DNA of 64,000 nucleotides from an uncultured Marinilabiliaceae bacterium (GTDB taxonomy: Bacteria; Bacteroidota; Bacteroidia; Bacteroidales; VadinHA17): the NCBI GenBank assembly GCA_942491535.1, contig CALOBV010000007.1, forward strand, positions 69,975-133,974. The letters run 5' to 3'. The position numbers were made by a program, and so were the translations under genes. Every line of letters starts with the position of its first letter. Within the stretch, counting starts at the first letter, position 1. Below are positions 3,191 to 51,579 of the stretch, in pieces. Under the pieces are notes generated by a model that saw nothing but the letters and a program-made list of their open reading frames with translations, searched no databases and was not told where the DNA came from.

Positions 3191-3509
3191 GAATGAATAT
3201 TTTAAATTTTCCTTCGTAAGATTCAGATTATTTTGTGCATAATTAATTGCTCTACAAAATAAATTATCCTTTTGCTATAGTCTTGTTAAAGAGTGTTAAA
3301 ATTTAGTTAAATATATTATTGTTCTAAAAATGAATCTGCTGTGATACTTATAAGTAAGTTCTATTCAATTCATGCCTTACTGGTAATATTTGAAAATATG
3401 GTAAAAATGAAGTGTTAAAAATAATAAAAACCAACAGATAGATTAATTTTCATGAACCAGAAATAATTTTGATTATTACTTTTACATATAATAATTAAGA
3501 AAAAGCTTT

Positions 3510-35526: not shown

Positions 35527-35758
35527 AATCAATCCTTTTAAGTTCAGCACATTATCAGAATAATATAAATTATATTCCGACACAATTCACGGCTACGAAA
35601 ATATCGAAATTATTAGAAAACTCAAAGATTATAGGGATTAATCAAACTGCCGTCTTTTGCTGGTTACCAATTAAGTATAGATATGAGCTGAATAATAAAA
35701 AATTAGTTATTAATTTCAAGGCTTATATTATTGTGGTTTTTTAATAAAAACAGATTCA

Positions 35759-36997: not shown

Positions 36998-37007
36998 TAA
37001 TTATAAA

Positions 37008-37760
37008 ATGAAATACATAGACTTAAATGCTGACCTCGGTGAAGGTTGTGGTAACGACAGTGAAATACTGAAATATGTTAGTTCGGCTAATATTGCCTGC
37101 GGATTGCATGCCGGATCGCCGGGGATCATGAGAGATACTGTTAAGCTCTCCATAGAAAACGGTGTCTCTATCGGGGCCCATCCGGGTTATCCTGACCGCC
37201 CAGGTTTTGGCAGAAATAATATGAATTTTAACTACCACGAGTTAAAAGCTATACTTCTCTACCAGATAGGTGCTCTTGATGCCATAGTAAGATCAGAAGG
37301 AGCCAGACTAATTCATGTAAAGGCACATGGAGCACTTTATAATAGTGCGGCAAAAGATCCTGAAATAGCCAGGGCAGTTGTTCATGCAATAAAAGAAATC
37401 GACCCCGGACTAATTATTTTTGGTCCCTGTAGTTCGCAAATTGAGTTTGAATCAAAAAAAGAAAACATGGCCTTTTGCTCAGAGGTTTTTGCCGACCGTG
37501 CATATATGAACGATGGGGCCCTTGTACCAAGATCTCTTCCCGGGGCTATAATTAAGGATAAAGAATTATGCGCCAGCAGGACGCTCTCGATGATAAACGA
37601 CGGCTTTGTAATATCTCACAGCGGAGATACTGTAAAAATTGTTGCCGAAACAGTTTGCCTGCACGGAGATAATGACAAAGCCCTGGAATTTGCTAAACAT
37701 CTATATAACAGTCTGATAAACGACGGCATTAACATTGGTGTAAATAAGATAAAAGATTGA
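37008..37760 (+). CDS. pxpA: 5-oxoprolinase subunit A (LamB/YcsF family)
   Basis: 250 aa. IDLNADLGEG...ANIACGLHAG...GAHPGYPD motifs. Confidence 0.9.
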   Translation: MKYIDLNADLGEGCGNDSEILKYVSSANIACGLHAGSPGIMRDTVKLSIENGVSIGAHPGYPDRPGFGRNNMNFNYHELKAILLYQIGALDAIVRSEGARLIHVKAHGALYNSAAKDPEIARAVVHAIKEIDPGLIIFGPCSSQIEFESKKENMAFCSEVFADRAYMNDGALVPRSLPGAIIKDKELCASRTLSMINDGFVISHSGDTVKIVAETVCLHGDNDKALEFAKHLYNSLINDGINIGVNKIKD

Positions 37761-38503
37761 CCGAGCTAAAATTCATACCTGCTGGTAATTCTGCCCTGTT
37801 TTGCAGTATTGCAAAAGATATCAAACCTTCTGTTTCACAAAAGATTGTGACAATCCATAAGCTTATCGGTCAAAGCGGTATCAGGGGAGTAATAGAATCT
37901 GTACCTTCCTATACCGGCCTGATGATCTATTTTGACCCGCTTAAAATAGATTTTAAAGCGCTCGAAGAATTAGTTACAAAATTATACAATAAGGTTATTT
38001 CTGGTAATTCTAAAGTACTGAGCAGATTAATCAGAGTCCCGGTTTGTTACGAAAAAGAGTTTGGGCTGGATATAGAGATTGTGGCCAATCAATCAGGTTT
38101 AAGTAATGAAGAAGTTATCGAACTACACACCAGGCCTGAGTACCTGGTACATATGATCGGATTCACTCCCGGGTTTCCATATCTCGGAGGGCTCAGTAAA
38201 AAGCTTGAAACCCCTCGTAAGGCTGATCCACGCTTAAAAGTAAAGGCTGGCAGTGTTGGTATCGCAGGTATACAGACTGGTATATATCCAATAGAATCAC
38301 CTGGTGGGTGGCAAATAATTGGCAGAACACCTCTTGTTTTATTTAAGCCGGAAGCAAAAGAACCATTTCTCTTTAAAGCAGGTGATTACGTTATTTTCAA
38401 ATCTATTACGCTAACAGATTATTTTAATATTGGAGAAGCTGTCAGAAAAGGAATTTATAAACCTGAAATCTTGCTCGATTATGAAGGGAATCAGAATAGT
38501 TAA
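37757..38503 (+). CDS. pxpB: 5-oxoprolinase subunit B (KipI / allophanate hydrolase subunit 1 family)
   Basis: 248 aa with GFTPGFPYLGGL...AGSVGIAG motifs. 4-nt overlap with pxpA. The track start is non-ATG (TTG). Confidence 0.85.
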   Translation: MTELKFIPAGNSALFCSIAKDIKPSVSQKIVTIHKLIGQSGIRGVIESVPSYTGLMIYFDPLKIDFKALEELVTKLYNKVISGNSKVLSRLIRVPVCYEKEFGLDIEIVANQSGLSNEEVIELHTRPEYLVHMIGFTPGFPYLGGLSKKLETPRKADPRLKVKAGSVGIAGIQTGIYPIESPGGWQIIGRTPLVLFKPEAKEPFLFKAGDYVIFKSITLTDYFNIGEAVRKGIYKPEILLDYEGNQNS

Positions 38504-39458
38504 TCCGGGAATGCATTCCACTATCCAGGATAGTGGAAGAACAGGATTCAGGGAATATGGGCTGCCAGTTTCGGGGGTTATGGATATTAGATCATTCCAC
38601 CTTGCTAACTGGCTGGTTAGAAATGATAGGAATGAAGCATTAATAGAAACAACTTTCCCGGGTATTGTGATAGAGTTTCTCTCTACTACTATTTTCGCTA
38701 TTGCAGGAGGTGACATGTCACCGGAATTAAACGGGAAAAAAATACAGAACTGGAAATCATACAGGGCAAAATCTGGTATGCGCCTTGAATTAACCAGGCT
38801 GGGAAGCGGGTCAAGAGCATATATTAGTTTTTCAGGCGGATTCAGAATCGATCCTCAGCTTAATAGTATGTCGACCTATGTAAAAGGAAAACTTGGAGGA
38901 TATCGCGGAAGAGAACTCCGTAAGGATGACATTATTCCTCTATACCCATCAATACCATATTTATATAAGAGCCGAAAAGTACCTGATAGTATGATTCCGG
39001 AATATAAGACAGATGTGGATCTGAAAGTTGTTCCAGGAGTAAATTACGATTTATTCAGCCAGTATTCGATCGAAGAATTTCTAAAAGGAAAATTCACTGT
39101 TTCTAGCAGAAGTGACAGAATGGGACTGAGACTTGAAGGGAAAGAGATTATGCCCGAAACTGATAAACAAATACTTTCATACGGCATTCATCCCGGGACA
39201 ATCCAGGTTCCCGGCGATGGGAATCCAATTATTATGGGTATGGACTGCCAGACTATTGGAGGCTATCCTCAGATTGCAAACATAATAAGTACTGATTTAC
39301 CCAGGGTTGGGCAGCTTAAACCAGGTGATCAGATCAGTTTCAGAATGGTAACTCAGACAGAAGCTCTGGAGTTGCTGAAAATATATGATTTATCCAGTAA
39401 TAAATTATTTGGGATCTCCAGATCAGTTTGCACTGATTGCATTGAAAAACGCCGCTAA
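38481..39458 (+). CDS. pxpC: 5-oxoprolinase subunit C (KipA / allophanate hydrolase subunit 2 family)
   Basis: The track gives 38430. I prefer the ATG at 38481 (MKGIRIVNPGMHSTIQDSGR, the typical N-terminus). Also ...GTIQVPGDGNPIIMGMDCQTIGGYPQIA. Confidence 0.85.
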   Translation: MKGIRIVNPGMHSTIQDSGRTGFREYGLPVSGVMDIRSFHLANWLVRNDRNEALIETTFPGIVIEFLSTTIFAIAGGDMSPELNGKKIQNWKSYRAKSGMRLELTRLGSGSRAYISFSGGFRIDPQLNSMSTYVKGKLGGYRGRELRKDDIIPLYPSIPYLYKSRKVPDSMIPEYKTDVDLKVVPGVNYDLFSQYSIEEFLKGKFTVSSRSDRMGLRLEGKEIMPETDKQILSYGIHPGTIQVPGDGNPIIMGMDCQTIGGYPQIANIISTDLPRVGQLKPGDQISFRMVTQTEALELLKIYDLSSNKLFGISRSVCTDCIEKRR

Positions 39459-40772
39459 TTGTTTTTTAGCAGTTTATTCTTTTCGATCAGATATCTGAAA
39501 GGATAAATAATCCTTTCTATAAGACGCATATCCTGAGTGATGATCTCGGCTGTTCCAGACATATTCTGATTAAACTGCAGCTCTTTATCATAGTTTGTTA
39601 CAAGACCTCCTGGCAGGCTTACATCTACTACATAAACATCGTTGGTTGCAAGCTGTGAAATAGACTCCACAACGCCTTCTACAATTCCATACTCAAGGAA
39701 TGGATAAGCGCCGAGCTTTATCAGTACTTTCTGGCCGGCTTCAACTTCACCTGAGCGTCTCATAGAAAGTTCAACCTTGCCTATAATATGATTTTCTCCA
39801 TCGGGCACCACTGTCAGAACGATATCACCTTCCTGAACAAGCTGGTTTTTACCCCAGAAATTCGAAAATGTCACCCTGCCATCTATTGGTGATTTAATTA
39901 AATGCTTCATATACCAGAGTTCAAGTTCACCCTGAAGCTTTATACTCTCATTTTGAAAAAGGGTATAAAGTTTTCTTCTTTCCTCTTCTCTTGCTGCCTT
40001 AAAGTCCTCAAGGCTCTGGTACCTTGAAGCACGATCAATTAACCTTGATCTCCTATCCAGTCTAACCTGCTCTAAGAGGATCTTCTCATCATAGAATGAT
40101 CTTTTGGTATGTTCGAGTTCCTGCAATGACCTTACATCACTGGCGAATAGGGAGGAATCGCGTAAATATTCAGCCTCAACCAATTTTAGTTTTTCGATAT
40201 AAAGGGCTTCCTTATTCGCAAGTTGCTCCAGGTAATCATTGATGCCTGTAATTTCATCCTGGACTGCATTAATTTTCTTTCCGTAATAGTCGACTGTTAC
40301 ATGGTTGATATAGTTATCAAGACATGTTTTATAAAAAGAATAGTTTGCCCTTAGTTCACCCAGCTGAGGATTTTCAGGCCCGTGGCATTTCAGGACTCTC
40401 TTTATCCACCGAATTAATACCACCAATATTTTCTTCGAGCATATTACTTAACCATAGCACGCTTTCCAGATCGGCGGTAGTTTCGATTAATGCAAGATAT
40501 TCATCTTTATGTACCTGCTGGCCTTCTACCACGAACAAATTGTTAATCTGCCCTGAGATATGTGCCATCATAGAGGCCGGAGGATTGGAGGTGCTTATAA
40601 CTATTTTTCCACTTACAATATATGGATAACTTATTATCCAGGATGCAATCACAGCCATAACAAAAACAATTGCAACAGCACTTATCCCCCACCTCACAAC
40701 AGAGGAAGGCGGATTGCCAATAACTTCCTCTACCGGTGATGATTCTCTTATATCGTGTATTGCTTTGTTCAT
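39455..40772 (-). pseudogene. HlyD-family membrane-fusion protein (about 439 aa), frameshifted
   Basis: ORFs 40374..40772 (N-terminal TM plus lipoyl-like ...VSGKIVISTSNPPASMMAHISGQINNLFVVEGQQVHKDEYLALIE) and 39455..40426 (coiled coil plus beta-barrel) overlap in different frames. Both frames are open between about 40374 and 40445. A 3-nt gap separates it from the upstream ABC exporter gene. Confidence 0.75.
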
Positions 40773-40774
40773 AT

Positions 40775-42961
40775 CTAATTTCCCAGTTCAAGCTGGTTTT
40801 TTACCAGATTATAATAATGCCCCTTTAAAGATATTAGTTGATCATGTGATCCTGTTTCTACTATTCTGCCTTCATCAAGAACAATAATATTGTCGGCATT
40901 TTTAACTGTACTTAGCCTGTGTGCTACTATCAGTACAGTCTTTCCCCTATAAAATCTGATCAGGTTATCATTGATAAGCTTTTCATTATTTGCATCGAGC
41001 GAATTTGTTGCTTCATCAAAAAACAGAAACTCTGGATCTTTGTAAACAGACCTGGCAATTAATATTCTCTGTTTTTGACCCTGGCTCAGACCCTTCCCAT
41101 CAACTCCTATTTTACTGTTATATCCAAGTGGAAGAGATTCGAGGAACTTCCTGATATTAGCTACGTCAACGGATTTGATAAGTTTCTCCTGGTCGATGGT
41201 TTCAATTCCCGGGGCAATATTATACGCTATTGAATCAGGAAAGATAAACCCATCCTGCATAACCACACCGCATTTCTTCCTCCAGAGTTTCAGGCTAAGG
41301 TTACTTAGCATAGTATCACCAATCAATATTTCACCAGTTACCGGTTTATAAAATCCCAGAATCATTTTTAAGAGCGTAGTCTTGCCACTGCCGCTTGGTC
41401 CGACAATGGCAGTTACTTTATGGTGTGGAATATGCATATTGATATCCTTCAGCACCATAGGTGATCTCGGACCTTCATATTGAAACGAAAGGTTATTTAT
41501 ATAAATATCCTTCTCTGCAGGCAAATTTCTTACCTTCATATCCAGATCACTTTCTTCTTCATCCCTGGTATGAACCTCTGCAAGCCGGTTAAGACTCATC
41601 CTGGCATCCTGGGCAGTCCTGAAGAAACTAATTATCTGACCTACAGGCATATTAAGCTGACCTATAATAAACTGAACTGCCAACATCATACCAAGAGTAA
41701 TATCACCATTAATCACGGCGGTAGCAGCAATTACTGTAATAAGTAGATTGCTAACCTCAAGAATAAATTTTCCGCCAGCCTGCTGGTATTGAAAAAGGCT
41801 AAGCGATTTGACCTTGGTCTTAAACAACAGTGCCTGTAAATTTTCCCAGTCCCATCTCTTACTCATCTCACTCTGGGTCAACTTAATCTCCTGCATTCCA
41901 TTAATAATTTCGATCAGCTTGCTGTTGGTTGCAGATTGCTGGCTAAAGCGTTTATGATCGAGCCTGGCTCTCGATTTCATAAATACTGATACCCAGATTA
42001 TATAAAGCAAGGTGCCAGTAACAAAAAGCAAGAGTATCCTGTAATCGTAGATGGCCAGAACTATGCTGAATATTATTATATTAAAAAATGAGAAGAGGAC
42101 ATTTAAGGTAGAAGTGGTCATAAATGATTCAATCCTGTTATTATCCTCAATTCTTTGAAGTAAATCTCCAGTTAATTTGGTATCAAAGAATGAAACGGGC
42201 AAGGACATAAGCTTTGTCAGAAATCCGGATACAACCGAAATATTGACCCTGGTTCCGATATGCAGAAGCAGCCAGCTCCTTATAAAATCAACCGACATTC
42301 TGCCTATTATAAGGGCTAACTGGGCAAACAATATTACATATATAAAGCCAATATCACTGGTATTGATTCCTATATCAATAATAGACTGAGTAAGGAAGGG
42401 CAGGATGAGTTGAATAAAACTTCCAATAAGTAGCCCCAGAATCAACTGAAAAAAATATTTCCTGTAGATTTTTATGTACTTATACAAAAACTTAAAACCA
42501 TGCTTCTCGCTTTTATCATCATCACTGTCATAAAATTCGGGAGTAGGCTGGAGAATCAGAACAAGGCCCTGCTTTTCTCCTTCAAGCGATGTACTTGCCC
42601 AATCCTTTTCAAATTCCTGGCGCGAAATAGTAATCCTTCCAAGAGCAGGATCTGCAATAAAAACCTTATCGGATTTAATTTTATAAACTACAATAAAGTG
42701 CTTTTGCCTCCAGTGGACAATACATGGCAGCGGGCTTTCTTTGCTGAGCTTATCGAAGGGGATCCTTACTCCTATTGTTCTGAAGCCAATTTTCTCTGCA
42801 GCCTCTGACAATCCAAGAAAAGAAACTCCCTCCCTGGTTATATAGCTATATTCTCTCAGCTTATCAATCGAAATACTCCGGCCATAATATGCCGAAACCA
42901 TCTTTAGGCACGATGGTCCGCAATCCATTGCATCAGCCTGCTGAATAAAAGGAAAGGACAT
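40775..42961 (-). CDS. C39-peptidase-domain ABC exporter (double-glycine leader processing/export)
   Basis: The track gives 797 aa. I prefer the ATG at 42959-42961 (MSFPFIQQADAMDCGPSCLK...), giving 728 aa. C39 Cys context is DCGPSC and His context KHFIVVY. Six-TM domain, Walker A GPSGSGKTT, signature LSQGQKQR, Walker B LFFDEATN. Confidence 0.9.
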   Translation of the reverse strand: MSFPFIQQADAMDCGPSCLKMVSAYYGRSISIDKLREYSYITREGVSFLGLSEAAEKIGFRTIGVRIPFDKLSKESPLPCIVHWRQKHFIVVYKIKSDKVFIADPALGRITISRQEFEKDWASTSLEGEKQGLVLILQPTPEFYDSDDDKSEKHGFKFLYKYIKIYRKYFFQLILGLLIGSFIQLILPFLTQSIIDIGINTSDIGFIYVILFAQLALIIGRMSVDFIRSWLLLHIGTRVNISVVSGFLTKLMSLPVSFFDTKLTGDLLQRIEDNNRIESFMTTSTLNVLFSFFNIIIFSIVLAIYDYRILLLFVTGTLLYIIWVSVFMKSRARLDHKRFSQQSATNSKLIEIINGMQEIKLTQSEMSKRWDWENLQALLFKTKVKSLSLFQYQQAGGKFILEVSNLLITVIAATAVINGDITLGMMLAVQFIIGQLNMPVGQIISFFRTAQDARMSLNRLAEVHTRDEEESDLDMKVRNLPAEKDIYINNLSFQYEGPRSPMVLKDINMHIPHHKVTAIVGPSGSGKTTLLKMILGFYKPVTGEILIGDTMLSNLSLKLWRKKCGVVMQDGFIFPDSIAYNIAPGIETIDQEKLIKSVDVANIRKFLESLPLGYNSKIGVDGKGLSQGQKQRILIARSVYKDPEFLFFDEATNSLDANNEKLINDNLIRFYRGKTVLIVAHRLSTVKNADNIIVLDEGRIVETGSHDQLISLKGHYYNLVKNQLELGN

Positions 42962-43109: not shown

Positions 43110-43679
43110 GTGTTTAAAAAGCACTCAGATAAAATGCTGGTTGAGGGATTAAGAAAGGGGGATGACAAAACTCTTAACTACCTCTATAGTAATTATTTCA
43201 GTACTGTTAAATCGTATATTGTAAAGAATAGCGGTACTGAAGATGATGCCTATGATATATTCCAGGATGCCCTGATGGTCGTCTATAAGAAGTTCCAGCA
43301 TAATGGGGTTGAATTGACTTCTGACCTTAAAGCATATGTATTTGGTGTTGCCAGGAAGCTATGGAGTAACCAGCTAAGAACCAAGAAAGAAATTCCAATT
43401 CATGATTATAATGATATAATTGATGATTTCGAACTTGAAAAGCTTCTTGATATTCCGATAGAACAAATAGTACAAAGATCCTTCCTCAAACTACCTGAAG
43501 ACTATCAAAAGGTTCTTACCATGCACCTTGAGGGCTGTGATTATGAAGAAATCGCCAGGAAAATGTCTTACAAGAGTGCTACCTATGCCAGGAGAAAGAA
43601 GTACCTGTGTAAGGAGGAACTAATCAGAATAATCAAATCCGACCCCGATTATAAGGATTATGAAGATTTTGGTCTGTAG
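43110..43679 (+). CDS. ECF-like sigma-70 family RNA polymerase sigma factor
   Basis: 189 aa (GTG start; an alternative ATG lies at 43134). Region 2 is DAYDIFQDALMVVYKK...AYVFGVARKLW. Region 4 HTH is LPEDYQKVLTMHLEGCDYEEIARKMSYKSATYARRKKY. Confidence 0.8.
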   Translation: MFKKHSDKMLVEGLRKGDDKTLNYLYSNYFSTVKSYIVKNSGTEDDAYDIFQDALMVVYKKFQHNGVELTSDLKAYVFGVARKLWSNQLRTKKEIPIHDYNDIIDDFELEKLLDIPIEQIVQRSFLKLPEDYQKVLTMHLEGCDYEEIARKMSYKSATYARRKKYLCKEELIRIIKSDPDYKDYEDFGL

Positions 43680-46600
43680 TACCTTCTCCTTACATATATC
43701 AACGAAAGTATCACCAGTATGGTAAGTCCTATTGTATGCCTCTTATAAAAAATTGGCTCATCCTCGCCTAAAATTACCAGGGCACACCAGAAATAAGGGT
43801 GAGACCTTAGTTGATCGGCAGATCTGAGATATTTTTTCCTCGATTTTTTTAAGGCTCCGCTCTTTGAGTAACCTTGCTTTAAATTACTATAAAACGACTT
43901 AATAATCTCACTTGCTGAATAATCATCAACTTCCCATAAAGACATTACCACTGATGGTGAACCTGCATACATAAAACCCCTTGCCAGGCTAATAATTCCT
44001 TCTCCCGATTGTAGATATCCCGCCCCTGTATTACATGAGCTTAAGACTACCATCTTTGCGTTAAGATCAAGATTATAAATCTCATATGTATTGAGTAAGC
44101 CGTTTTCTATTGTGTCATTATTTTGAGCAAATACCATCTTGGATAGCATCGGTTGCCTGTCGTTAAGCAATGTGTGCATGGCGAGGTGAATAATCTTTTC
44201 ACTTGATGCCTCACTAACAAACCTTTGCTCGCTGGCCTGATTTTCAAGATAAAGCTGGCCACCAAGCAGGCTACTGATATATATAGCCTCCTCTTTTGCT
44301 CCCGGAATATTATTAAGAAGACCTCTTTCCATTTGCCTGGACAGAAGCAATGAATCTGAATCCAGTGTTGAAGAATATGTAGGTGCAAATACCAGGGCGG
44401 GGTTAAAGAAGCTTTTCCCCTTTCCTTCTGATTCTATAAGGAGAGAAGCTGAATAGGTGTAAATAATTTCAAATTCCTTAAAGAGATAATTAATATCACG
44501 ATAATTTATTGGCCTAACCCCTATTGTATCGCTAATCAAAGCCTCAAACGGAATATATGAAAGTATATCATCTGCTGCAATTACGAGATTTTTTGAAATC
44601 AGATACGGTTTAATCGGCTCGATAAGAAGCTTATATAAATAATGCCCATTTTTCACTATTCTTTTAAATTGTGATCGTGCACCAGTCTCAATTGCCGGGT
44701 TTGTAATATCTGAGCGAAACTCTCTGACTATATCCCTGGTAACAGAATCGATAGAAGTATTTAGGAACTCGCAACCTTTCCTGTTGAAAATAAATGTATA
44801 TAGTATTGAATCTGACAGAAAGAATTCAACAAAATTTCTATCCCGTCCAAGATAATTCCTAACATCCTTGCAGTATGCAACTTTATCCTCATGTTTTAAA
44901 CTGTAATACCTGGGATAATCTCTCTCGAATAGATGAATCAATGAATCGCGCTTAATTACGGCCCCGGTACGTTCCTCTTCATATAAATTTACAAGTGTTG
45001 CATCAGCATTACCCGAATTTGTCTCGTTGTATAATTTGTCAGTTAATTCCTTTATATAGTGATCCAGTTCTTTTTCAATGCCTACAAGGTTTTCAGGTAC
45101 ATGAAACTCCATAGCCTGTACTTCCCTTGTTGAAGAGAGTAAGGTTGAAGCCTTGCTCTTCTCAGAGTACCTGAATGCCATATTAAGATAGGCGGGGTCA
45201 TTATCATATTTGTATTTTTCGGATGCCAGCCATATGGCATTGTCCCACAAGAAGTCGAATCGTCCGGTAATCTGCAAGCGGCTTTCTTCACCGGAAAGAT
45301 CAATCTTAACAGAATCAAGAATAGAAATCGCTGCATCAATATCCTTAAGTGCTTTATCGAGATATTCGATTGATTTATCCTGCAAATATTTCTCTCTATA
45401 TATATTACTTCTGAAATCATAAATAAATAATAACCTCGGGGGGCTAAAATATTCTCCGGATCCAAGAACTTCGTTATACAAACTCAGGGCTGCATCAAAT
45501 TCTCCCTTCTCAACCAGCACATTAGCGAGACCTCGCTTTATGTCATTGACTAATACAATTCCATACCGGCCCTCGTTTGTTTTATTATATAAGTCTGAAT
45601 AAATATTGTAAGCGGAACTGATATCATTTATATATAATCTATAGTAAGAAGCAAGATTTTCCCTGGCGCTGAGGTATCTTTCGGAATCTGTACCATAATT
45701 GTCGTAACAGTACTTAACAGCTTTTTTAAATATTTCTAACGATTCTTCATATCTTCCAATCTTGGCCAGGAAGTGACCGTAATTTGTATAATATACATCT
45801 CCATCGTCAGGACTATCTTTCATAGACTCCAGCACCTCAATCATTTTTTCATAGCTTTTTATTGCATTCAGGGTATCGCCTGTCATTGCATTTGCTACAC
45901 TAAGACCATTGGTAATATATAGAAGCATAATCATATCATTATGATCATATTCTATCTGCCTGGTTTCCGCTACCTGGTACATTGACCTTGCATTATTATA
46001 ATCACCCCTGGCGCCATAATAAACGCCAAGATTATAATATAGCAGCCCCAGCGAACTAAATTCTCTGCTTGATTTTCCTACTATTTCAATTGCTCTCAGG
46101 GCCGACTCCCTTGCATTATTATATTCGCCCATATCAATATATACCGCCGACAAATTGGCAAGTGGCTTAATTAGATAGTGAGAGCTATCCCCGTAATATA
46201 TCTCTCGTAACTTAATGCTTCTTTTCAAAAAATCGGCCCCTTCAATGTACCTGTCGAGCCCATATATGGATAAACCGAGTTGAGATATAACAGTGCATAA
46301 GCCTGCCGTATCGGGCTTTTCTGATAGCTGGTAGGATTCTATAGCCCTACTATAGTATCGTTCGGCTTCAATATATTCTCGATGATTATAACTATATCCA
46401 CCCAGATACCTGTTAATCCTTGCAAATAGATCAGGAGATAATCCCGGCCTCGTCTCAACAAAATCGAGGAGGTAATTATACATCTCAGTAGACCGATCAG
46501 AGTAAGCATCCCTGTTAAGTTCACTTGCAAACAAATCAAGTAAAAGATTGATGTCGATATCGCCGGTATCTGAGTATACCATTATATCGTTACTTATACT

Positions 46601-46687
46601 ATTATTTACTTCCAATGCATATGCATTATCACTTATAGGTAAAATAAAGAATAATGCCCCTGCTATTAACTTAAAATACTTTTCCAT
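43658..46687 (-). CDS. exported, C-terminally anchored TPR-CHAT (caspase-fold) protease
   Basis: 1009 aa. Signal peptide MEKYFKLIAGALFFILPISDNAYA. About 450 aa of TPR-like repeats. The C-terminal CHAT domain has His context IIHLAMHT and Cys context VVLSSCNTGAGY. A terminal TM (TIGLTILVILSLIYV) is followed by a basic RRRYYRPK tail. Confidence 0.85.
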   Translation of the reverse strand: MEKYFKLIAGALFFILPISDNAYALEVNNSISNDIMVYSDTGDIDINLLLDLFASELNRDAYSDRSTEMYNYLLDFVETRPGLSPDLFARINRYLGGYSYNHREYIEAERYYSRAIESYQLSEKPDTAGLCTVISQLGLSIYGLDRYIEGADFLKRSIKLREIYYGDSSHYLIKPLANLSAVYIDMGEYNNARESALRAIEIVGKSSREFSSLGLLYYNLGVYYGARGDYNNARSMYQVAETRQIEYDHNDMIMLLYITNGLSVANAMTGDTLNAIKSYEKMIEVLESMKDSPDDGDVYYTNYGHFLAKIGRYEESLEIFKKAVKYCYDNYGTDSERYLSARENLASYYRLYINDISSAYNIYSDLYNKTNEGRYGIVLVNDIKRGLANVLVEKGEFDAALSLYNEVLGSGEYFSPPRLLFIYDFRSNIYREKYLQDKSIEYLDKALKDIDAAISILDSVKIDLSGEESRLQITGRFDFLWDNAIWLASEKYKYDNDPAYLNMAFRYSEKSKASTLLSSTREVQAMEFHVPENLVGIEKELDHYIKELTDKLYNETNSGNADATLVNLYEEERTGAVIKRDSLIHLFERDYPRYYSLKHEDKVAYCKDVRNYLGRDRNFVEFFLSDSILYTFIFNRKGCEFLNTSIDSVTRDIVREFRSDITNPAIETGARSQFKRIVKNGHYLYKLLIEPIKPYLISKNLVIAADDILSYIPFEALISDTIGVRPINYRDINYLFKEFEIIYTYSASLLIESEGKGKSFFNPALVFAPTYSSTLDSDSLLLSRQMERGLLNNIPGAKEEAIYISSLLGGQLYLENQASEQRFVSEASSEKIIHLAMHTLLNDRQPMLSKMVFAQNNDTIENGLLNTYEIYNLDLNAKMVVLSSCNTGAGYLQSGEGIISLARGFMYAGSPSVVMSLWEVDDYSASEIIKSFYSNLKQGYSKSGALKKSRKKYLRSADQLRSHPYFWCALVILGEDEPIFYKRHTIGLTILVILSLIYVRRRYYRPKSS

Positions 46688-46952
46688 ATTTTATCTTCCC
46701 TTCCCTGCATGTGTAAGATCCATACCTGTCACAAAGTAAAAAAAATAATAATAAGTTCTATCCGATAGGAATTTATTAAATAATTCATAAAAAAAAACAT
46801 GATCGTATTGCTTTAATTAACAAGTATTTAACTTGAAGGCAAATTTTTTTTATAAAAAAACATTCTTTTTCGTTGTCACAAATAAGGTTTTCATTACATG
46901 TACTTATGTAACATAATAAACAACCCGATTTAACAAACAAAAATTTAAAACG

Positions 46953-47105
46953 ATGAAAAACCTGAATCAAGAAATCAAATTTGAAAACTTCAACGAATTT
47001 TTACTGGCAGACGAAGAACTTATTAACGTACGCGGAGGCGACGGAAATGAAGCAGGAGAAAAAGGAACTGTTGTTCCTCCTGTTGTAGCTGATCCTGAAA
47101 TCTAG
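46953..47105 (+). CDS. double-glycine-leader precursor peptide (50 aa)
   Basis: Translated by hand: MKNLNQEIKFENFNEFLLADEELINVRGG / DGNEAGEKGTVVPPVVADPEI, with stop TAG at 47103-47105. The leader fits L(-12) E(-8) L(-7) V(-4) G(-2) G(-1). It is too short for the ORF track. It lies in a 594-nt gap between CHAT-locus genes. Confidence 0.65.
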   Translation: MKNLNQEIKFENFNEFLLADEELINVRGGDGNEAGEKGTVVPPVVADPEI

Positions 47106-47302
47106 ATTTTTTTAAAGAAGTATTCCTGCTTTAGTGGAATTATTGATGTATTGTAGTGCTTAAGCTATAAGAAGCTTGTTATGCACGAACGAATTACGCC
47201 CTGGAAATATTTTCAGGAATAAATTCGCACGAACTTCGGAATATCGAAAGACTAATTTAGTCTAAAAGACATTGAATATAATTGCGTGAAATACATATAG
47301 TT

Positions 47303-48049
47303 ATGGAAAATATTGAATTTACCAGGTTTATTGAGCGCTACCTGGACAACAAAATGCAAGCATCTGAAAGAAGATGGTTCGAAAAAGAGATGGAAGGTAA
47401 TCTCTGGCTCAAAAAAGAACTGGAACTGAGGCGTAAGGCAAACGAAATAGCTTCTAATTTCGATGCTGTTAAGATCAGGGAAAAGCTACAGAGAGCTGAA
47501 ATGCTACATAGGAAAGAATCTTCTATTAGTAAGGCTGTTAAGAAAGTACCGGTTAACTATGCTGCCATCTTTCTTGGTCTTATAATTATCAGCACTCTGA
47601 TTATTCTCTCAGGCAACAGTTTTGATCTGAGATCATATACAAGTGATTCTGTAGATAATTATACAGCCCTTACAATACACAGATCCGGAGATGTAAATGT
47701 TCCCCGTCAACTATCAATGGGAATGCAACTCTACCGGGAAGGAAAATATAATGAAGCTATTCAGCAATTTGAATTATTGGTTGATGGCAATCAATCTACC
47801 ATACAGTCTAACTTCCTCAATGGTATGGCGAATATGCAAATAAGCGAATACAACAAGGCTATTAAATCGTTTGACGTGGTAATTGAACATAACGATAATA
47901 TGTTCATCGAAGACGCATCATATTACCTGGGCCTCTGCTACGTAAATATTGAAGAAAATGAGAGGGCAAAGGCAATATTGGAGGGTATAATATCCAGTGA
48001 AAGCCGCTACAGGAAGGATGCAAAAAAATTATTAAAAAGCATAGACTAA
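47303..48049 (+). CDS. single-pass membrane TPR protein, anti-sigma-factor-like
   Basis: The track start 47282 is TTG. I prefer the ATG at 47303 (MENIEFTRFIERYLDNKMQASERRWFEKEMEGN, a pattern resembling anti-sigma N-domains but lacking the zinc ligands). One TM (YAAIFLGLIIISTLIILSG) is followed by an extracytoplasmic TPR region. Confidence 0.5.
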   Translation: MENIEFTRFIERYLDNKMQASERRWFEKEMEGNLWLKKELELRRKANEIASNFDAVKIREKLQRAEMLHRKESSISKAVKKVPVNYAAIFLGLIIISTLIILSGNSFDLRSYTSDSVDNYTALTIHRSGDVNVPRQLSMGMQLYREGKYNEAIQQFELLVDGNQSTIQSNFLNGMANMQISEYNKAIKSFDVVIEHNDNMFIEDASYYLGLCYVNIEENERAKAILEGIISSESRYRKDAKKLLKSID

Positions 48050-48091: not shown

Positions 48092-48931
48092 ATGTTTGAT
48101 TCTGAAAACAAATACAGAGAACAAATAAGTAACAATTCCGGCAAAGGGGATGTTATAGGTAGTGAAAGTATTTCATGCACAGATTCAAATATTTTGTCTT
48201 GCCCGAAAATTTTGACGGGCCTATCACATGAGGTGAGAACCTATATGAATTCTATAGTGGCTTTCTCATTTCTCCAGAATTCAGACAATTGCAATATAAA
48301 TGACAGACAGGAATACACTGATCATATTTTAAATTCATGTGACCAGCTAATTACACTGTTTGATAATTTTCTTGATTCAGCTTTAATCGACGCTGAGAAA
48401 CCCAGCAGTAATCTCAAAAAAAGAGAACTGACGGATATTCTTCAGCACCTTGCTATTGAATTGAACAGTTCACTGGCAAAATTTGACAAAAGTAATGTTT
48501 CACTCGTCCTGGAAGAACAAACATACAGGGACGAAGTATTTATTGATGAGGAAAAGATATTTCGGGTTATCAAAAACCTCTTCCATAACGCTGTGGAGCA
48601 TACAACATCGGGTTACATTAAATTAGGTTACAAAAAGGTAGATAGCCAGGTTGTTTTTTATGTTATAGATTCAGGAAATGGCTATCACCTGAACAAGGAA
48701 TTGCTGGAGGCTGATAACCTCACCTCCTACCTTGTTAAGAACAACAGCACATTTACAACAGTAGGTTTAATCCTGGCCAACAAGCTTATCGAGAGTATGA
48801 ACGGAAAGTTCTGGATTGAACCTAATGGAGTTAATGGTACGGGCATGTATTTTTCAATTCACTACCGTAAAGCCTTTGATCCCCAGGAAAATGAGGATAT
48901 AAATAAGTTCAAATCCAGAATCGCTATATGA
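48092..48931 (+). CDS. cytoplasmic histidine kinase without sensor or TM domain
   Basis: 279 aa. H-box LSHEVRTYMNSI appears after only about 40 residues. N-box NLFHNAVEHT, G1 DSGNG, G2 GVNGTG. No response regulator is adjacent. Confidence 0.8.
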   Translation: MFDSENKYREQISNNSGKGDVIGSESISCTDSNILSCPKILTGLSHEVRTYMNSIVAFSFLQNSDNCNINDRQEYTDHILNSCDQLITLFDNFLDSALIDAEKPSSNLKKRELTDILQHLAIELNSSLAKFDKSNVSLVLEEQTYRDEVFIDEEKIFRVIKNLFHNAVEHTTSGYIKLGYKKVDSQVVFYVIDSGNGYHLNKELLEADNLTSYLVKNNSTFTTVGLILANKLIESMNGKFWIEPNGVNGTGMYFSIHYRKAFDPQENEDINKFKSRIAI

Positions 48932-48982: not shown

Positions 48983-49015
48983 AAAGAGTGCCCGAGCGGC
49001 ACTCTTTTCTTTTAT
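48983..49015. terminator. bidirectional intrinsic terminator
   Basis: A perfect 10-bp stem AAAGAGTGCC (48983-48992) / GGCACTCTTT (48998-49007) with loop CGAGC. It is T-rich on the plus side (TTCTTTTAT) and lies between convergent genes. Confidence 0.75.
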
Positions 49016-50956
49016 GGCAATTTAACAGTTCCCGTAATCCGTATCTCTGTCCTTCTATTTCTTCTCATACCTTCCCGGGTATTATTATCAGAAACAGGCA
49101 TTGTAGCACCAAAACCCTTATAGTTTATCCTCCCCGAATCAATCCCTTTTGAAATAAGAAAGTCTTTAACCGATTCGGCCCTGTTTTGAGAAAGGATCTG
49201 GTTATGGCTATCAGATCCGGAAGAATCAGTATGGCCCCCAATCTCAATTATAATAGTTTCATTTTTTACCAGGAGGTCGTACAACTTATTAAGCTCAATA
49301 AGTGATTCGCTTAGCAGCTCCCATGAATCTGTTTCGAAGAAAACATTATATAGCGTCATCATTTCTCCAACCCTTATAGGGCTCAATCCAACCCGCACAA
49401 TAAAAGGTTCGGCAACACTGTGCTCTCCTTCAAGAAAAAAGCTTTCAGAAAAAAACAAATATTTGTCTTTATTTACATTAAGCCCGTAGTTTTTGCCTGG
49501 CGGTAAGACAGATAAGAAATTCACCATTATCATTTGTTGATGATATCAGAACGGTCTTTTTATTAATTAGATCGGTTAATTCATAACGTGCCTTTAATTT
49601 TCTTCCGGAAATCTTATCATATACTGTTCCCTTTATATACGATACAGGATCTGGTCTAAGTTGATCCGGGAGATTAAAATAGTAAAGATCCCTGCCCTTT
49701 CCCGGGTTTATCTCCGACGAATAATAAGCTCTATCGCCTGAACCATTAATAATCAACCCCATTTCATCTGTCTGAGTATTAATAGGATATCCAAGATTCT
49801 CGACCTCTGTCCATGTAGTATCATCAATCATCCTCGACATATACAGATCCAGACCACCCATAGAAGGTCTTCCATTTGATGAAAAATACAATGTCAATCC
49901 ATCAAAATGTATAAAGGGCGACATCTCATCCCCAGCTGTGTTGATATCGCCACCCAGGTTTACCGGTTCTGTCCAGTTTCCGGATTCTGACTTCTTGCTA
50001 TACCAGATATCCATTCCGCCATATCCACCTGGCCTGTTACTGACGAAAAACAACTTTTGACCGTCTGATGCCAGTGATGGCTGCGACTCCCAGTACTTTG
50101 TATTAATTGGATTACCGATATTCATTCCTGATATCCACCCCCTTGATGTTGAGGCAGAATAATATATATCACATCCACCCTTGCCATCCTCCCTGTTACA
50201 GGCAGTAAAGTACATATACTGACCTCCGGCAGCAAGTGACAGGGCACCTTCGTTGTAAGGGGTGTTCAGCGGGTACCCGATATTTTTGGCTGGCAAAAGC
50301 ACATTATCTTTCATCTCGCTGAAATAAAAATCCTCCTGGTACCTTATGCCATCAATATTTCTGGCTCCTTCAGCTATCTGTCGCGTAAAAAAGAAAAGGC
50401 TATTATCAACTGTAATAGCAGGCCAGTACTCATCGTACTCGGTATTAATCGAATCGCCCAGGGATACCGGAAAAAACGTAACGGGATGTTGTTTTGCCTC
50501 TATTGCAAATTCACAGTTTATCAGGTACTTCCGCGATTTCTTTATCAGCTTATCTGATTCTGGTCCGGTTTCCAGGAAAGACCTGAAAAACCTGGCAGCC
50601 CTGCTATAATCTCCAAGCATAAATTCAACCTCTCCAAGGCTGTACATTGCCGGAACAAAAAACAGAGAGTCGATCTCGATAACTCTTCTGAAATTATTGG
50701 CCGACTCATTATATTTTTTTTGATCCTTATATAGCTCTGCAAGTAGAAGAAAGGCCTCAATAAAATCATTATCCCTGCCCGTAGCTTCAAGGAGATGATC
50801 TTCGGCAGTTTTGTAATCGACAAAATCGTAAGCTCTTTTCCCTTCTGTATATGATTTAAGTGCACGATTCGATCTGGTATGCAGATTCTGTCCCGAAGCC
50901 TGGAGTGAAAAAACTGAAACTATTAATAATACAAATATTGTTCTTATACCCCTCAT
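49012..50956 (-). pseudogene. TPR / TolB-like (PD40) beta-propeller / OmpA-domain protein (about 648 aa), frameshifted
   Basis: ORFs 49478..51001 and 49012..49533 overlap in different frames. The junction ...NDNGEFLICL|PPGKNYGLNVNK lies at minus-strand CTTACCGCC (plus 49499-49507). The C-terminal OmpA motif is GHTDSSGSDSHNQILSQNRAESV...NRRTEI. The likely start MRGIRTIF (ATG 50954-50956) overlaps the queE stop (TAATG). Confidence 0.75.
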
Positions 50957-51579
50957 TACGGTATTTTCATATACTTGTGGCTCTGTAAAGATATCCTCCA
51001 CTTATTATTTTTCAGAATATAATCAACTATCGTGCCTATTATACTATCAAACCGGCTCCATTCGGCTTGCAGAAATAATTCACATGAATCTTGCACTCTT
51101 AAACTCATCTTTTCTGCCCAAATAAAATCTTCACTCTTCAGTATTATGACCTTAAGTTCACTTGCCCTTAGTTCAATATTTCCAACAGGTGGAGCATTTA
51201 TTTTGGGCGACAAGCAAATCCAGTCCCATTCTCCGGATAAATGATAGGCCCCTGAAGTTTCCAGATAAGTTTTAACCTTATGCTCCTTTAATAATCTACA
51301 CAGGGGGTTCATATCCCACATTAATGGTTCTCCCCCTGTAATAACTACAGAGTCTGCTCCGGCATCAAGAACATGCTGAACTATTTCCCTTACCTCAACA
51401 AGGGGATGAATATCAGGATTCCATGTGTATCTTGAATCACACCAGCTACACCCTACATCACATCCTCCTATCCTAAGGAAATAAGCAGCTCTGCCGGTAT
51501 GATAGCCTTCTCCCTGGAGGGTATAGAAATGTTCAACCAGCGGAAGCTTTTCTCCATTTTTTATTACTGTTTCCTTCAT
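50956..51579 (-). CDS. queE: 7-carboxy-7-deazaguanine synthase (radical SAM)
   Basis: 207 aa. EHFYTLQGEGYHTGRAAYFLRIGGCDVGCSWCDSRYTW is a QueE-type cluster motif and N-terminus. Confidence 0.8.
   Translation of the reverse strand: MKETVIKNGEKLPLVEHFYTLQGEGYHTGRAAYFLRIGGCDVGCSWCDSRYTWNPDIHPLVEVREIVQHVLDAGADSVVITGGEPLMWDMNPLCRLLKEHKVKTYLETSGAYHLSGEWDWICLSPKINAPPVGNIELRASELKVIILKSEDFIWAEKMSLRVQDSCELFLQAEWSRFDSIIGTIVDYILKNNKWRISLQSHKYMKIP

Follow-up and report, generated by a model that had tools for sequence, protein, structure and literature searches.

A short open reading frame (ORF) in the 64,000-nucleotide stretch of Bacteroidota DNA analysed here (the window) raises two questions: whether it is a gene and, if so, whether the peptide that it encodes is a toxin or a signal. 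Its translation is exactly the one quoted in the first-pass annotation (Table 1), and the double-glycine (GG) consensus described there was read again in the leader, with Leu at −12, Glu at −8, Leu at −7, Val at −4 and Gly at −2 and −1. The positions of a C39-type leader are present, namely hydrophobic residues at −4, −7 (Met in relatives) and −12, Glu at −8, and the GG end. Judged by these residues, the 50-codon ORF encodes a GG-leader precursor. One short ATG-started ORF in the window carries the GG-leader pattern, where 0.075 would be expected from a dinucleotide shuffle; at least one such ORF arose in 15 of 200 shuffles (about 7%), so the motif alone is suggestive at most. Its homologues settle the matter: this is a genuine gene, conserved in relatives, and its product is a small acidic peptide rich in proline.

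Table 1. Features of the peptide locus, in order of their position in the window.
Feature	Position	Strand	Details
HlyD-type membrane-fusion protein	39455..40772	−	HlyD_3 and type_I_hlyD matches; split by a 1-nt insertion at 40382
Peptidase-containing ABC exporter (PCAT)	40775..42961	−	728 aa from the conserved MSFPFIQQADAMDCGP start; Peptidase_C39 (3e-40), ABC_membrane, ABC_tran
ECF-type sigma factor	43110..43679	+	189 aa, conserved GTG start; Sigma70_r2/r4_2; TIGR02937 52.5 bits vs cut-off 42.9
TPR-CHAT protease	43658..46687	−	1009 aa; Pfam CHAT (3e-54) and TPR matches; N-terminal signal peptide, C-terminal membrane anchor
Promoter-like region of the peptide gene	46868..46930	+	T-tract, GTCACAAA (46875-46882), fixed 13-nt spacer, ACATGTA (46896-46902), 17-20 nt, AACCCGATT (46922-46930)
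Peptide ORF	46953..47105	+	ATG to TAG, 50 codons, translating as MKNLNQEIKFENFNEFLLADEELINVRGG-DGNEAGEKGTVVPPVVADPEI
Leader	46953..47039	+	MKNLNQEIKFENFNEFLLADEELINVRGG; 29 codons; predicted C39 cleavage site after Gly29
Core and stop codon	47040..47105	+	DGNEAGEKGTVVPPVVADPEI; 21 aa at 47040-47102
Single-pass membrane TPR protein	47303..48049	+	248 aa; TM helix 85-102; present in 75/76 loci
Soluble histidine kinase	48092..48931	+	279 aa; HisKA and HATPase_c; H-box SHEVRT; no TM segment

Homologues were identified at 85 distinct loci from metagenome-assembled genomes and metagenomes (the named ones being Bacteroidales), which together encode 76 distinct cores. The peptide had 10 close homologues, 42 HMM matches among 1.84 billion representative proteins, and counterparts in five species-representative genomes and 154 confirmed metagenome stretches. 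Its start codon is conserved across loci, and with dN/dS values of 0.30 for the leader and 0.45 for the core, both below 1, the gene is under purifying selection. The GG-leader positions were invariant or near-invariant in 77 distinct leaders, an invariance partly imposed by the search pattern that found the metagenome loci. Nearly invariant leaders accompanied by 76 distinct cores are what the first-pass annotation had expected of relatives. Each locus carries one to four copies of the peptide gene, and some genomes have two to four in tandem; in one locus with four tandem copies (L009), the cores are identical while the leaders differ.

The gene had been described as hidden. The GG-leader gene is real, but the exact peptide had already been called, unnamed, in a public protein collection. 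The family is without a model in Pfam, NCBIfam and PADLOC. A search with TIGR01847 at E≤1 returned no match for the window peptide, whose best scores, 14.8 bits for NF046113 (cut-off 40) and 14.5 bits for TIGR04149 (cut-off 25), were obtained with very short models. A full-text literature search found no paper on the peptide family or module. Rfam and terminator scans of positions 46600-47400 found nothing, and folding of the spacer between the peptide and TPR genes was not significant (z = −1.6).

As annotated, the core contains two Asp, three Glu and one Lys and lacks Cys and aromatic residues; its net charge is about −4, and its computed monoisotopic mass, unmodified, is 2092.03 Da. Three related types can be told apart among the 76 distinct cores, which are 12–21 residues long, carry net charges from 0 to −5, are never cationic, consist of 19% Pro and contain Cys in only 1 of 76 cases. 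They contain PP, end in a hydrophobic residue and have no amphipathic character. Class II bacteriocins are typically cationic or disulfide-containing peptides. The core had been judged unlike these and unsuited to thioether chemistry, and this assessment holds: the core is acidic, Pro-containing and Cys-free, a pattern common to the 76 distinct cores, and has no thiol on which thioether chemistry could act. Furthermore, no maturase gene lies nearby, so the core is probably unmodified.

The neighbourhood of the peptide gene is equally regular. Where the flanks suffice, gene order is constant: (HlyD), C39 ABC exporter, ECF sigma factor, TPR-CHAT protease, peptide (one to four copies), single-pass TPR protein and soluble histidine kinase. 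The peptide gene is accompanied by the CHAT gene in 47 of 48 loci, the TPR protein gene in 75 of 76, the kinase gene in 48 of 49, the sigma gene in 35 of 35, the C39 exporter gene in all 29 loci with enough flank, and the HlyD gene in 18 of 25. The exporter gene, about 4 kb from the peptide gene, is the only one of its C39/ABC kind in the window, as previously stated. Its C39 domain covers residues 1 to about 135, and the C39 motifs are readable, with Cys in DCGPSC, His in KHFIVVY and Asp in IADPA, which we take to be the catalytic triad. Since the exporter co-occurs in 29 of 29 loci, it should be the cognate exporter of the peptide and should cut and export the core. The HlyD gene, interrupted in the window, is intact in a close relative (L003, 438 aa). 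Elsewhere in the neighbourhood, a PorE-like gene shows an apparent frameshift at 49498, and a DUF349 gene appears to be split. A locus with a type C core (L078) has no HlyD gene, its exporter abutting the DUF349 gene, nor did any other type C locus yield a detectable homologue of HlyD; type C loci thus show no adaptor beside the exporter and keep all other module genes.

Throughout a deep clade, the locus keeps its place on the chromosome. Synteny there extends to the entire neighbourhood and takes in unrelated genes (QueE-like, PorE-like and DUF349), and the co-occurrence therefore partly reflects vertical inheritance rather than functional coupling alone. For the same reason, an attempt to define the module boundaries through synteny failed. 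Within the clade, identity to the window is just 29–54% for the CHAT and TPR proteins, compared with about 45–70% for the flanking genes; the putative sensors thus appear to evolve fast alongside core diversification. Arg235 of the TPR protein and Arg161 of CHAT are basic whenever the −2 residue of the peptide is Glu. This co-variation between receptor and peptide is weak, being essentially one clade-level switch with one counter-example. A PADLOC search for defence systems returned no match for the CHAT, TPR, kinase, sigma or peptide genes and generic ATPase matches alone for the exporter. No Cas protein family matched the neighbouring genes scanned, and no CBASS or CRISPR genes were adjacent to the locus.

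The CHAT gene is divergent from the peptide gene and starts 265 nt upstream of it. On the basis of its signal peptide and C-terminal anchor, the protease is predicted to be periplasmic; nearly all complete CHAT homologues listed share a signal-like N-terminus and, at the C-terminus, a hydrophobic helix with basic residues after it. Across 40 sequences, His838 and Cys885 do not vary. A single-sequence search of PDB sequences with CHAT returned TPR proteins only, and CHAT relatives surfaced through structural search: the closest solved folds to the AF2 model (pLDDT 85) are Csx29 (E 3e-11), DdvA (Foldseek E 7e-9) and separase. A functional link between the peptide and CHAT is plausible, because the two are co-inherited in 47 of 48 loci and CHAT is predicted to lie in the periplasm. 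The form of this link suggested in the first-pass annotation, recognition of a caspase-type VVAD-P site in the core, is rejected. The type A core motif, [DE]G..KG[TM]xxPP[VI]Tx[DE]PE[IL], is kept in relatives, and the cores of close relatives carry VV-DPEI, VTVHPEI, VTEPEI or ITEPEI; in the two other types, the final residues are PPIKI, PPIII or PPVIIEI, without any Asp-Pro. The Asp-Pro pair is thus not conserved. Moreover, TPR-CHAT proteases of known specificity do not cleave after Asp, the residue before the cut being Arg for separase and Met or Leu for craspases (PMC11506125). What is conserved in the family is the core C-terminus, types A and C ending in E-[ILF].

The sigma gene is convergent with the CHAT gene, and its 3′ end overlaps it by 22 nt. 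On the other side of the peptide gene, the TPR protein is predicted to consist of a cytoplasmic three-helix N-terminal domain, a TM helix, a low-confidence linker and, at residues 131-248, a periplasmic 3-TPR domain. The three-helix domain is conserved, and the linker carries a conserved YE.....RS motif. The TPR domain has YbgF and BamD as fold neighbours, along with TPRs whose solved structures include bound C-terminal peptides of Hsp70/Hsp90. By its topology, this protein is the anti-sigma-like candidate of the locus; its gene is not adjacent to the sigma gene. No anti-sigma match was obtained for the N-terminus in Pfam (whole protein, N-terminal 100 aa, and 20 N-terminal homologues at E≤10), NCBIfam or PDB profile searches, and Foldseek with the full model returned TPR folds only. 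The kinase gene lies 43 nt downstream of the TPR gene. A crude consensus probe detected no response-regulator receiver domain in the window.

A conserved region upstream of the peptide gene may function as its promoter. The motif is unique in the window (0.01 expected) and was present in 11 of the first 12 loci; a loose pattern recovered it ahead of the peptide gene at 67 of 75 loci, the remaining eight having close variants such as ACACGTA. The Bacteroidota sigma-A element TAnnTTTG is absent from this region. The usual ECF promoter pattern is AAC/CGT, which the motif does not resemble. It was not found before the sigma, CHAT or PCAT genes, and because each locus has a single copy, no regulon can be defined. 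The promoter of the sigma gene carries a sigma-A-type TAtaTTTG element; this housekeeping-type promoter gives no sign of sigma autoregulation.

Taken with this setting, the peptide looks more like a previously undescribed peptide signal than a toxin, because in one Bacteroidales lineage its constant neighbours are the CHAT protease, the ECF sigma factor, the kinase and the membrane TPR protein, and because its cores are non-cationic, short, Pro-rich and nearly free of Cys, without a nearby maturase gene and at a fixed chromosomal position. Our preferred reading, held with about even confidence, is that the peptide would act as an exported ligand in the envelope for the co-encoded TPR / CHAT / ECF-sigma / kinase circuit. 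By family rules, the C39 domain of the co-inherited exporter would cleave the precursor after Gly29, and the released 21-residue core would then be pumped across the inner membrane into the periplasm; with an intact HlyD adaptor, it may pass further through some outer-membrane channel. The periplasm is the likely meeting place because CHAT has a signal peptide and anchor, the TPR domain is predicted to lie outside, and type C loci without HlyD keep the rest of the module. Conserved context, topology and fold point to the peptide as a dedicated ligand of envelope sensors. The receptor might be the 3-TPR domain that the single-pass TPR protein is predicted to expose to the periplasm, the TPR arm of CHAT, or both; a TPR is proposed in view of the fold neighbours with bound Hsp70/Hsp90 peptides and the conserved C-terminus of the core. 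The single-pass TPR protein would pair with the soluble kinase, with output through the kinase and the ECF sigma factor.

The later steps are more speculative. Binding of the peptide may turn on CHAT, which would then cut the TPR protein in its juxtamembrane linker, in the way that DegS cleaves RseA and as has been proposed for DdvA. The logic of a CHAT–sigma pair is suggested by the closest folds, Csx29 and DdvA, both of which work with ECF sigma factors (PMC10028731, PMC11506125). The freed sigma factor might drive the special promoter of the peptide gene and so close an autoinduction loop; regulated expression is suggested by the conserved, fixed-spacing, non-sigma-A promoter-like motif before that gene. 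Several observations point against a signal circuit, namely the missing anti-sigma match, the distance of the TPR gene from the sigma gene, the lack of a response regulator detected nearby, the absence of any sign of sigma autoregulation, the unlikeness of the peptide promoter to the usual ECF pattern, the clade-wide synteny, the weakness of the co-variation and the frameshifted HlyD gene in the window. A self-contained peptide-gated, caspase-like cascade would go further still: the peptide C-terminus would dock to the periplasmic TPR and activate CHAT, and site-1 cleavage at the YE.....RS linker would free the ECF sigma factor, switch the kinase, or both, feeding back on the peptide promoter. 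We consider this complete scheme unlikely. If it were true, a TPR-CHAT / sigma switch of the DdvA or craspase kind would have a defined activating ligand encoded in the genome, and Bacteroidota would have quorum sensing by peptide.

GG peptide and PCAT signalling is best documented in Gram-positive bacteria, whereas Gram-negative PCATs are mostly seen as toxin exporters and a non-toxin role has been described as lacking evidence (PMC10986499). The Gram-positive GG pheromones ComC/CSP with ComAB, BlpC and PlnA have been reviewed (PMC7595303). The present locus shares with them a short GG precursor, a dedicated C39 ABC exporter, a small peptide without a nearby maturase gene, a linked histidine kinase and alternative sigma factor, and conserved leaders with diversifying cores, as in pherotypes. 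It differs in its diderm host, ECF sigma factor, periplasmic CHAT, anionic Pro-rich cores and periplasmic TPR domains as the likely sensors. Unlike the ComCDE and BlpRH cassettes, it has no polytopic membrane kinase, its kinase being of the soluble HisKA type, and the crude probe revealed no receiver domain in the window such as a LytTR response regulator would have. By analogy, and with the same even confidence, the locus may be seen as the Gram-negative equivalent of a GG-type pheromone system, connected to an ECF-sigma / TPR-CHAT module. A Gram-negative precedent for a regulatory role is HetC, a PCAT needed for heterocyst differentiation in Nostoc and proposed to export a regulatory peptide, not a toxin, to the periplasm (PMC10986499). 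HetC, like the exporter of type C loci, has no adjacent membrane-fusion gene; its substrate is not known and no GG peptide is encoded nearby, whereas here the substrate gene is evident. With its obvious pairing of substrate and exporter, the peptide family is a clear candidate for regulation by a GG peptide in a diderm lineage.

Known TPR-CHAT systems offer further parallels. The His838/Cys885 dyad and an ECF sigma factor occur in the same locus, as in these systems, but CHAT is neither fused to an anti-sigma factor nor bound to a CRISPR effector. DdvA is the sole characterised periplasmic TPR-CHAT with an ECF sigma factor, and no activating signal is known for it yet (PMC11506125). The likeness extends to the His/Cys dyad, the CHAT fold and the proposal, made for both, of signal-induced cleavage of a juxtamembrane linker. 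DdvA combines an anti-sigma domain, a TM helix and TPR-CHAT in a single polypeptide, whereas here CHAT is separate and C-terminally anchored, the anti-sigma-like candidate is a second TPR protein without a detectable anti-sigma domain, and the locus adds its own exported peptide, exporter and kinase. The craspase comprises Cas7-11, Csx29 (a TPR-CHAT), Csx30 and CASP-sigma (PMC10028731). Csx29 is the closest solved fold, and in the craspase a ligand-activated TPR-CHAT cleaves an inhibitor and relieves an ECF-like sigma factor. That system is cytoplasmic, RNA-guided and encoded in a CRISPR locus, whereas the present protease is predicted to be periplasmic and its candidate ligand is a secreted peptide. 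DegS is activated by C-terminal peptides of outer-membrane proteins. In the DegS-RseA-sigmaE system of E. coli, this periplasmic protease releases an ECF sigma factor by cutting its single-pass anti-sigma factor (summarised in PMC10028731), and the logic proposed here is the same. DegS, a serine protease with a PDZ domain, responds to the C-termini of misfolded porins, whereas the present locus has a TPR-CHAT cysteine protease and an encoded, exported peptide. Should the peptide be the ligand, the module would offer a tractable model for the switching on of caspase-fold proteases outside the cytoplasm and would show a coupling of secreted peptides to sigma-factor release in bacteria.

The foremost rival to the signal reading is an unmodified bacteriocin or microcin-like peptide exported through the PCAT and HlyD, with the sigma factor, kinase and TPR proteins serving only for regulation or immunity; we regard it as unlikely. 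A PCAT, an HlyD protein and a GG peptide are the classic bacteriocin export set, yet HlyD is absent from type C loci. Tandem copies in some genomes would suit a bacteriocin, but cores are identical among tandem copies. Diversifying cores behind fixed leaders also fit, although these cores, short, anionic to neutral, Pro-rich and without Cys or amphipathic character, are unlike those of bacteroidetocins, class II bacteriocins and microcins. Class II bacteriocin and microcin cores are cationic, amphipathic or disulfide-stabilised and roughly 30–60 residues long, compared with 21 residues, a charge of −4 and no Cys here. A membrane protein gene lies directly downstream; no immunity gene is obvious, the 198-nt spacer between the peptide and TPR genes having no ORF of at least 30 aa wholly inside it, and the downstream TPR protein could in principle serve. 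Additionally, the position of the locus is fixed throughout a deep clade, whereas bacteriocin loci tend to be strain-variable. Even if the peptide were a toxin, an anionic, 12–21-residue, Pro-rich class would be new.

Alternatively, the peptide could be mainly a partner of CHAT, either as a C-terminally trimmed substrate or as a securin-like pseudosubstrate restraining the periplasmic protease until conditions change. The strictly adjacent, divergent arrangement of the two genes (47/48) and the predicted arrival of both products in the periplasm speak for such a pairing, as does separase, a CHAT-domain fold relative held inactive by its inhibitor securin (PMC11506125). A conserved PP[VI] motif followed by a variable tail would also suit this reading, but the cores show no residue that could mark a conserved cleavage site, and the Asp-Pro pair is not conserved. 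This reading, which leaves the equally conserved membrane TPR protein and kinase unexplained, appears quite unlikely.

Very improbable, in our judgement, is a TIGR04149-type RiPP precursor modified by a radical-SAM enzyme before export. [quoted passage not shown] Both resemble the present locus in their Bacteroidota GG leader and nearby PCAT and HlyD genes, and differ from it in that no maturase gene lies near the window peptide and its core is anionic and Cys-free. The leader resembles TIGR04149, and one relative with a type C core (P0041) scores 25.8 bits, just over the cut-off of 25, but the window peptide stays below it at 14.5 bits and the similarity is confined to the GG-leader part of the model. 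A 207-aa radical-SAM gene does lie four genes downstream in every long locus; its product is short, has no SPASM-family match and best matches QueE models (122.6 bits). No maturase of the TIGR04148, TIGR04150 or TIGR04085 type was found among the neighbouring genes scanned (DUF349 to QueE), and the cores are without Cys. Finally, the probability of a chance ORF with a fortuitous GG-like motif, which the motif alone would allow in about 7% of shuffled windows, is practically nil, this reading being refuted by the 85 distinct syntenic loci, dN/dS below 1, and the conserved start codon and promoter motif.

The ORF proposed in the first-pass annotation is translated as MKNLNQEIKFENFNEFLLADEELINVRGGDGNEAGEKGTVVPPVVADPEI, a double-glycine (GG) leader followed by a core. 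V-4, L-7, E-8, and L-12 precede Gly-Gly in the leader, and the 21-residue core contains five acidic residues, one Lys, no Cys, and no aromatic residue, all as that annotation had stated; the net charge of the core is approximately -4 and its computed monoisotopic mass is 2092.03 Da. Among short ATG-started ORFs in the window, this was the single match to the GG-leader pattern. Because dinucleotide shuffles of the window also yielded such ORFs (mean, 0.075; at least one in 15 of 200 shuffles), the GG motif by itself is no more than suggestive. Word-indexed searching of 5.8 billion proteins returned 10 close homologs with 72–96% identity, and 42 family members were recovered by an exhaustive HMM search across 1.84 billion representative proteins. 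Five loci were identified in a one-genome-per-species scan, all in metagenome-assembled genomes labeled Rikenellaceae, Rikenella, Marinilabiliaceae, or Bacteroidales. Additionally, a metagenome scan confirmed 154 stretches, 80 of which were retrieved, and the overall set comprised 85 distinct loci and 76 distinct cores. By codon-level comparison, dN/dS is 0.30 in the leader and 0.45 in the core, and the identical peptide is already present, as an unnamed called protein, in a public collection. From these comparisons the ORF is judged to be a genuine gene, and the probability of a chance ORF is negligible.

The leader consensus, MK[TN]LN...F.[ED]F.L[ST][ND]EEMI.VRGG, is nearly invariant, which is partly a product of the search pattern used. 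The cores form three related types: A, the window's own ([DE]G..KG[TM]xxPP[VI]Tx[DE]PE[IL]), B ([DE]G[DE]P[IV]xx[PT]xxPP[IV][IKR][IV]), and C (NG....[DGN]PT[RK]PP[VI][IV]IE[ILF]). Across the 76 cores, length ranges from 12 to 21 residues and net charge from 0 to -5, with none positive; Pro and Ile make up 19% and 16% of residues, PP occurs in 74 cores, a C-terminal Ile in 60, and Cys in one. Tandem arrays of two to four peptide genes were also found, each array being preceded by one promoter motif. Locus L009 carries four genes (862–1607 of the locus) that encode identical cores, with leaders differing at several residues and a few silent changes, and L045, L059, and L087 carry two copies each. 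Within the arrays, leaders differ while cores are identical or, in L059, one or two residues apart. The peptide had no Pfam match, and in NCBIfam its leader reached only sub-threshold scores, 14.8 bits against NF046113 (cut-off 40) and 14.5 bits against TIGR04149 (cut-off 25); one type C relative narrowly exceeds the latter cut-off at 25.8 bits. The family thus far has no model of its own in Pfam, NCBIfam, or PADLOC.

Gene order is constant wherever the contig extends far enough, and the partner genes are listed in the table. The sole C39 domain of the window belongs, as previously claimed, to the peptidase-containing ABC exporter (PCAT), which retains the C39 motifs with Cys (DCGPSC), His (KHFIVVY), and Asp (IADPA). 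By sequence and context, the peptide has the features of a GG-leader PCAT substrate. The TPR-CHAT gene starts 265 nt upstream of the peptide gene on the opposite strand; its 3' end overlaps that of the convergent ECF sigma gene by 22 nt.

Features of the peptide locus in the window. Counts are loci with the gene / loci with enough flank, with the peptide gene as reference.
Feature	Position	Strand	Loci
DUF349 protein	33413-35583	-	
Nramp transporter and LamB_YcsF / CT_C_D / CT_A_B set	35759-39458	+	
HlyD adaptor	39455-40772	-	18/25
C39 ABC exporter (PCAT)	40775-42961	-	29/29
ECF sigma factor		+	35/35
ECF sigma / TPR-CHAT 3' overlap	43658-43679		
TPR-CHAT protease, 1009 aa	43658-46687	-	47/48
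Promoter-like motif	46868-46930		
Peptide gene, 50 codons	46953-47105	+	reference gene
Conserved stretch in peptide–TPR spacer	47170-47240	+	
TPR protein, 248 aa		+	75/76
YE.....RS motif of TPR protein	47660-47686		
Histidine kinase		+	48/49
PorE/CHU_0125-like protein	49012-51001	-	
Radical-SAM protein, 207 aa	50956-51579	-	

Nearly all complete CHAT homologs listed carry a signal-like N-terminal segment and, at the C-terminus, a hydrophobic helix followed by basic residues, and all 40 sequences compared keep His838 and Cys885. Because of these features, the CHAT protein is predicted to be an active protease that faces the periplasm and is tethered to the inner membrane. The AlphaFold2 model of the CHAT half (pLDDT 85, pTM 0.87) most resembles craspase Csx29 (E 3e-11), followed by the anti-sigma factor DdvA (7e-9) and separase (2e-8). 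The model of the TPR protein (pLDDT 72) comprises three N-terminal helices, a transmembrane helix (residues 85–102), a linker modeled with low confidence, and a compact domain of three TPRs on the periplasmic side. Fold neighbors of this domain are YbgF and BamD (E ~1e-3), together with structures solved with bound C-terminal peptides, namely Sec72–Ssa1 and FKBP51, RPAP3, and AIP with Hsp90 (E ~1e-3). A YE.....RS motif (residues 120–128), conserved family-wide in the linker just outside the membrane, is a candidate protease site. No anti-sigma signature was found in the TPR protein. The kinase has HisKA and HATPase_c domains with an intact H-box and no transmembrane segment; no response regulator lies near the module, and a crude receiver-domain probe gave no hit in the window.

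Upstream of every peptide gene checked lies a T-tract, GTCACAAA, exactly 13 nt, ACA[TC]GTA, 17–20 nt, and usually AACCC(T)GAWT. This promoter-like motif is present in a single copy per locus and is unique in the window, where 0.01 would be expected. The Bacteroidota housekeeping -7 element TAnnTTTG is missing from this region, which hints that an alternative sigma factor transcribes the gene or that a dedicated regulator controls it. The neighboring ECF sigma factor is a candidate driver; its own gene is preceded by a conserved TAnnTTTG and shows no sign of autoregulation. Close relatives share part of the spacer between the peptide and TPR genes, TATGCACGAACGAATTACGCCCTGGAAATATTTTCAGG, which includes a small hairpin; this stretch matched nothing in Rfam and did not fold with significant energy.

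Sequence and comparison show a conserved GG precursor and a PCAT in which the C39 active-site motifs are preserved, along with a CHAT protease of predicted periplasmic location and activity, a single-pass membrane protein whose TPRs face the periplasm, an ECF sigma factor, and a kinase that is soluble. We give about an even chance to the peptide being a signal or ligand in an envelope-signaling module. Counting against this reading are the missing anti-sigma signature in the TPR protein, the lack of a nearby response regulator, a sigma gene with no hint of autoregulation, and a receptor–peptide link limited to one clade-level co-switch. The PCAT would cut the precursor after Gly29 and export the 21-mer, which would bind one or both TPR modules, with output through the kinase and sigma factor. 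More speculatively, the peptide may switch on the CHAT protease, which would then clip the TPR protein linker. Such a step would resemble DegS/RseA, the model proposed for DdvA, whose activating signal is unknown (PMC11506125), and the cleavage of the sigma inhibitor Csx30 by Csx29 (PMC10028731).

Among the alternatives, an exported bacteriocin is unlikely; the peptide is dissimilar to both class II bacteriocins and microcins. That the peptide is a CHAT substrate or inhibitor is improbable. The caspase-type VVAD-P site once speculated for the core was rejected: Asp-Pro is not kept among relatives (VV-DPEI, VTVHPEI, VTEPEI, ITEPEI), and core types B and C lack any Asp-Pro. TPR-CHAT proteases of known specificity cleave after Arg, Met, or Leu (PMC11506125). 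The intuition behind that speculation, a link between peptide and CHAT protease, is backed by strict adjacency and a shared predicted compartment. A RiPP is very improbable; the peptide departs from TIGR04149 RiPPs in score, maturases, and Cys. The remaining probability falls to other explanations.

The module joins features of Gram-positive GG pheromone cassettes to a TPR-CHAT/ECF-sigma pair. To our knowledge, such pairs are known solely from DdvA–DdvS and craspase, and the present architecture differs from each. PADLOC assigned the module proteins to no known defense system, and no description of the family or module was found in the literature searches made.

In L078, which has a type C core (NG...PTRPPVIIEI), the exporter directly adjoins the DUF349 gene, without an intervening adaptor gene (3359–3747 of the locus), and tblastn found no HlyD homolog in other type C loci (L024, L027, L041, L071, L075, L080, and others); L078 and these loci retain all other module genes. 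Release into the periplasm by an adaptor-less PCAT has been argued for HetC (PMC10986499), and by analogy the same would be expected here. In the window, one extra base at 40382 breaks HlyD into two overlapping ORFs relative to L003, a locus 95% identical to the window with an intact 438-aa gene. The break reflects either an error in the assembly or a true pseudogene; in the second case, export in this organism may end at the periplasm. The PorE/CHU_0125-like protein (TPR/beta-propeller/OmpA) is split by a 1-nt insertion at 49498, with an unsplit 662-aa gene in L003; its scores of ~290–307 bits fall short of the 600–620 cut-offs set for the T9SS PorE and CHU_0125 models, and all long loci show it in synteny with the module. 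The DUF349 protein forms two ORFs (316 and 346 aa) versus a single gene of 634–794 aa in relatives. As this is the third apparent frameshift in 20 kb, indel errors in the window assembly are suggested.

The wider neighborhood is also syntenic across all of these loci, including genes for the DUF349 protein, the PorE/CHU_0125-like OmpA protein, a QueE-like radical-SAM protein, a phosphatase, a 5'-nucleotidase, and NamZ. As judged from these loci, the family is inherited vertically at one chromosomal site within one deep clade; therefore, co-occurrence by itself cannot define a functional module. Still informative are the biochemical logic of the parts, the periplasm as the predicted meeting place of peptide, CHAT protease, and TPR domain, the type C loci described above, and the rates of divergence. 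CHAT and the TPR protein diverge most rapidly (29–54% identity to the window's), in parallel with core diversification, and the kinase (36–63%) and sigma factor (42–77%) evolve somewhat more slowly; flanking genes show ~45–70% identity, near-identical L003 left out. Just one clade-level co-switch connects the putative receptors with the peptide: residues R235 of the TPR protein and R161 of CHAT are basic where peptide position -2 is Glu. The 207-aa radical-SAM gene, four genes downstream of the peptide, is kept in all long loci; its best match is to QueE models (122.6 bits, below all curated QueE cut-offs), and it is read as a probable QueE-like housekeeping protein. Between the DUF349 gene and HlyD, the 5-oxoprolinase-like set with its Nramp transporter is confined to the window's near relatives L003, L005, and L017, and is thus a lineage-specific insertion beside the module.
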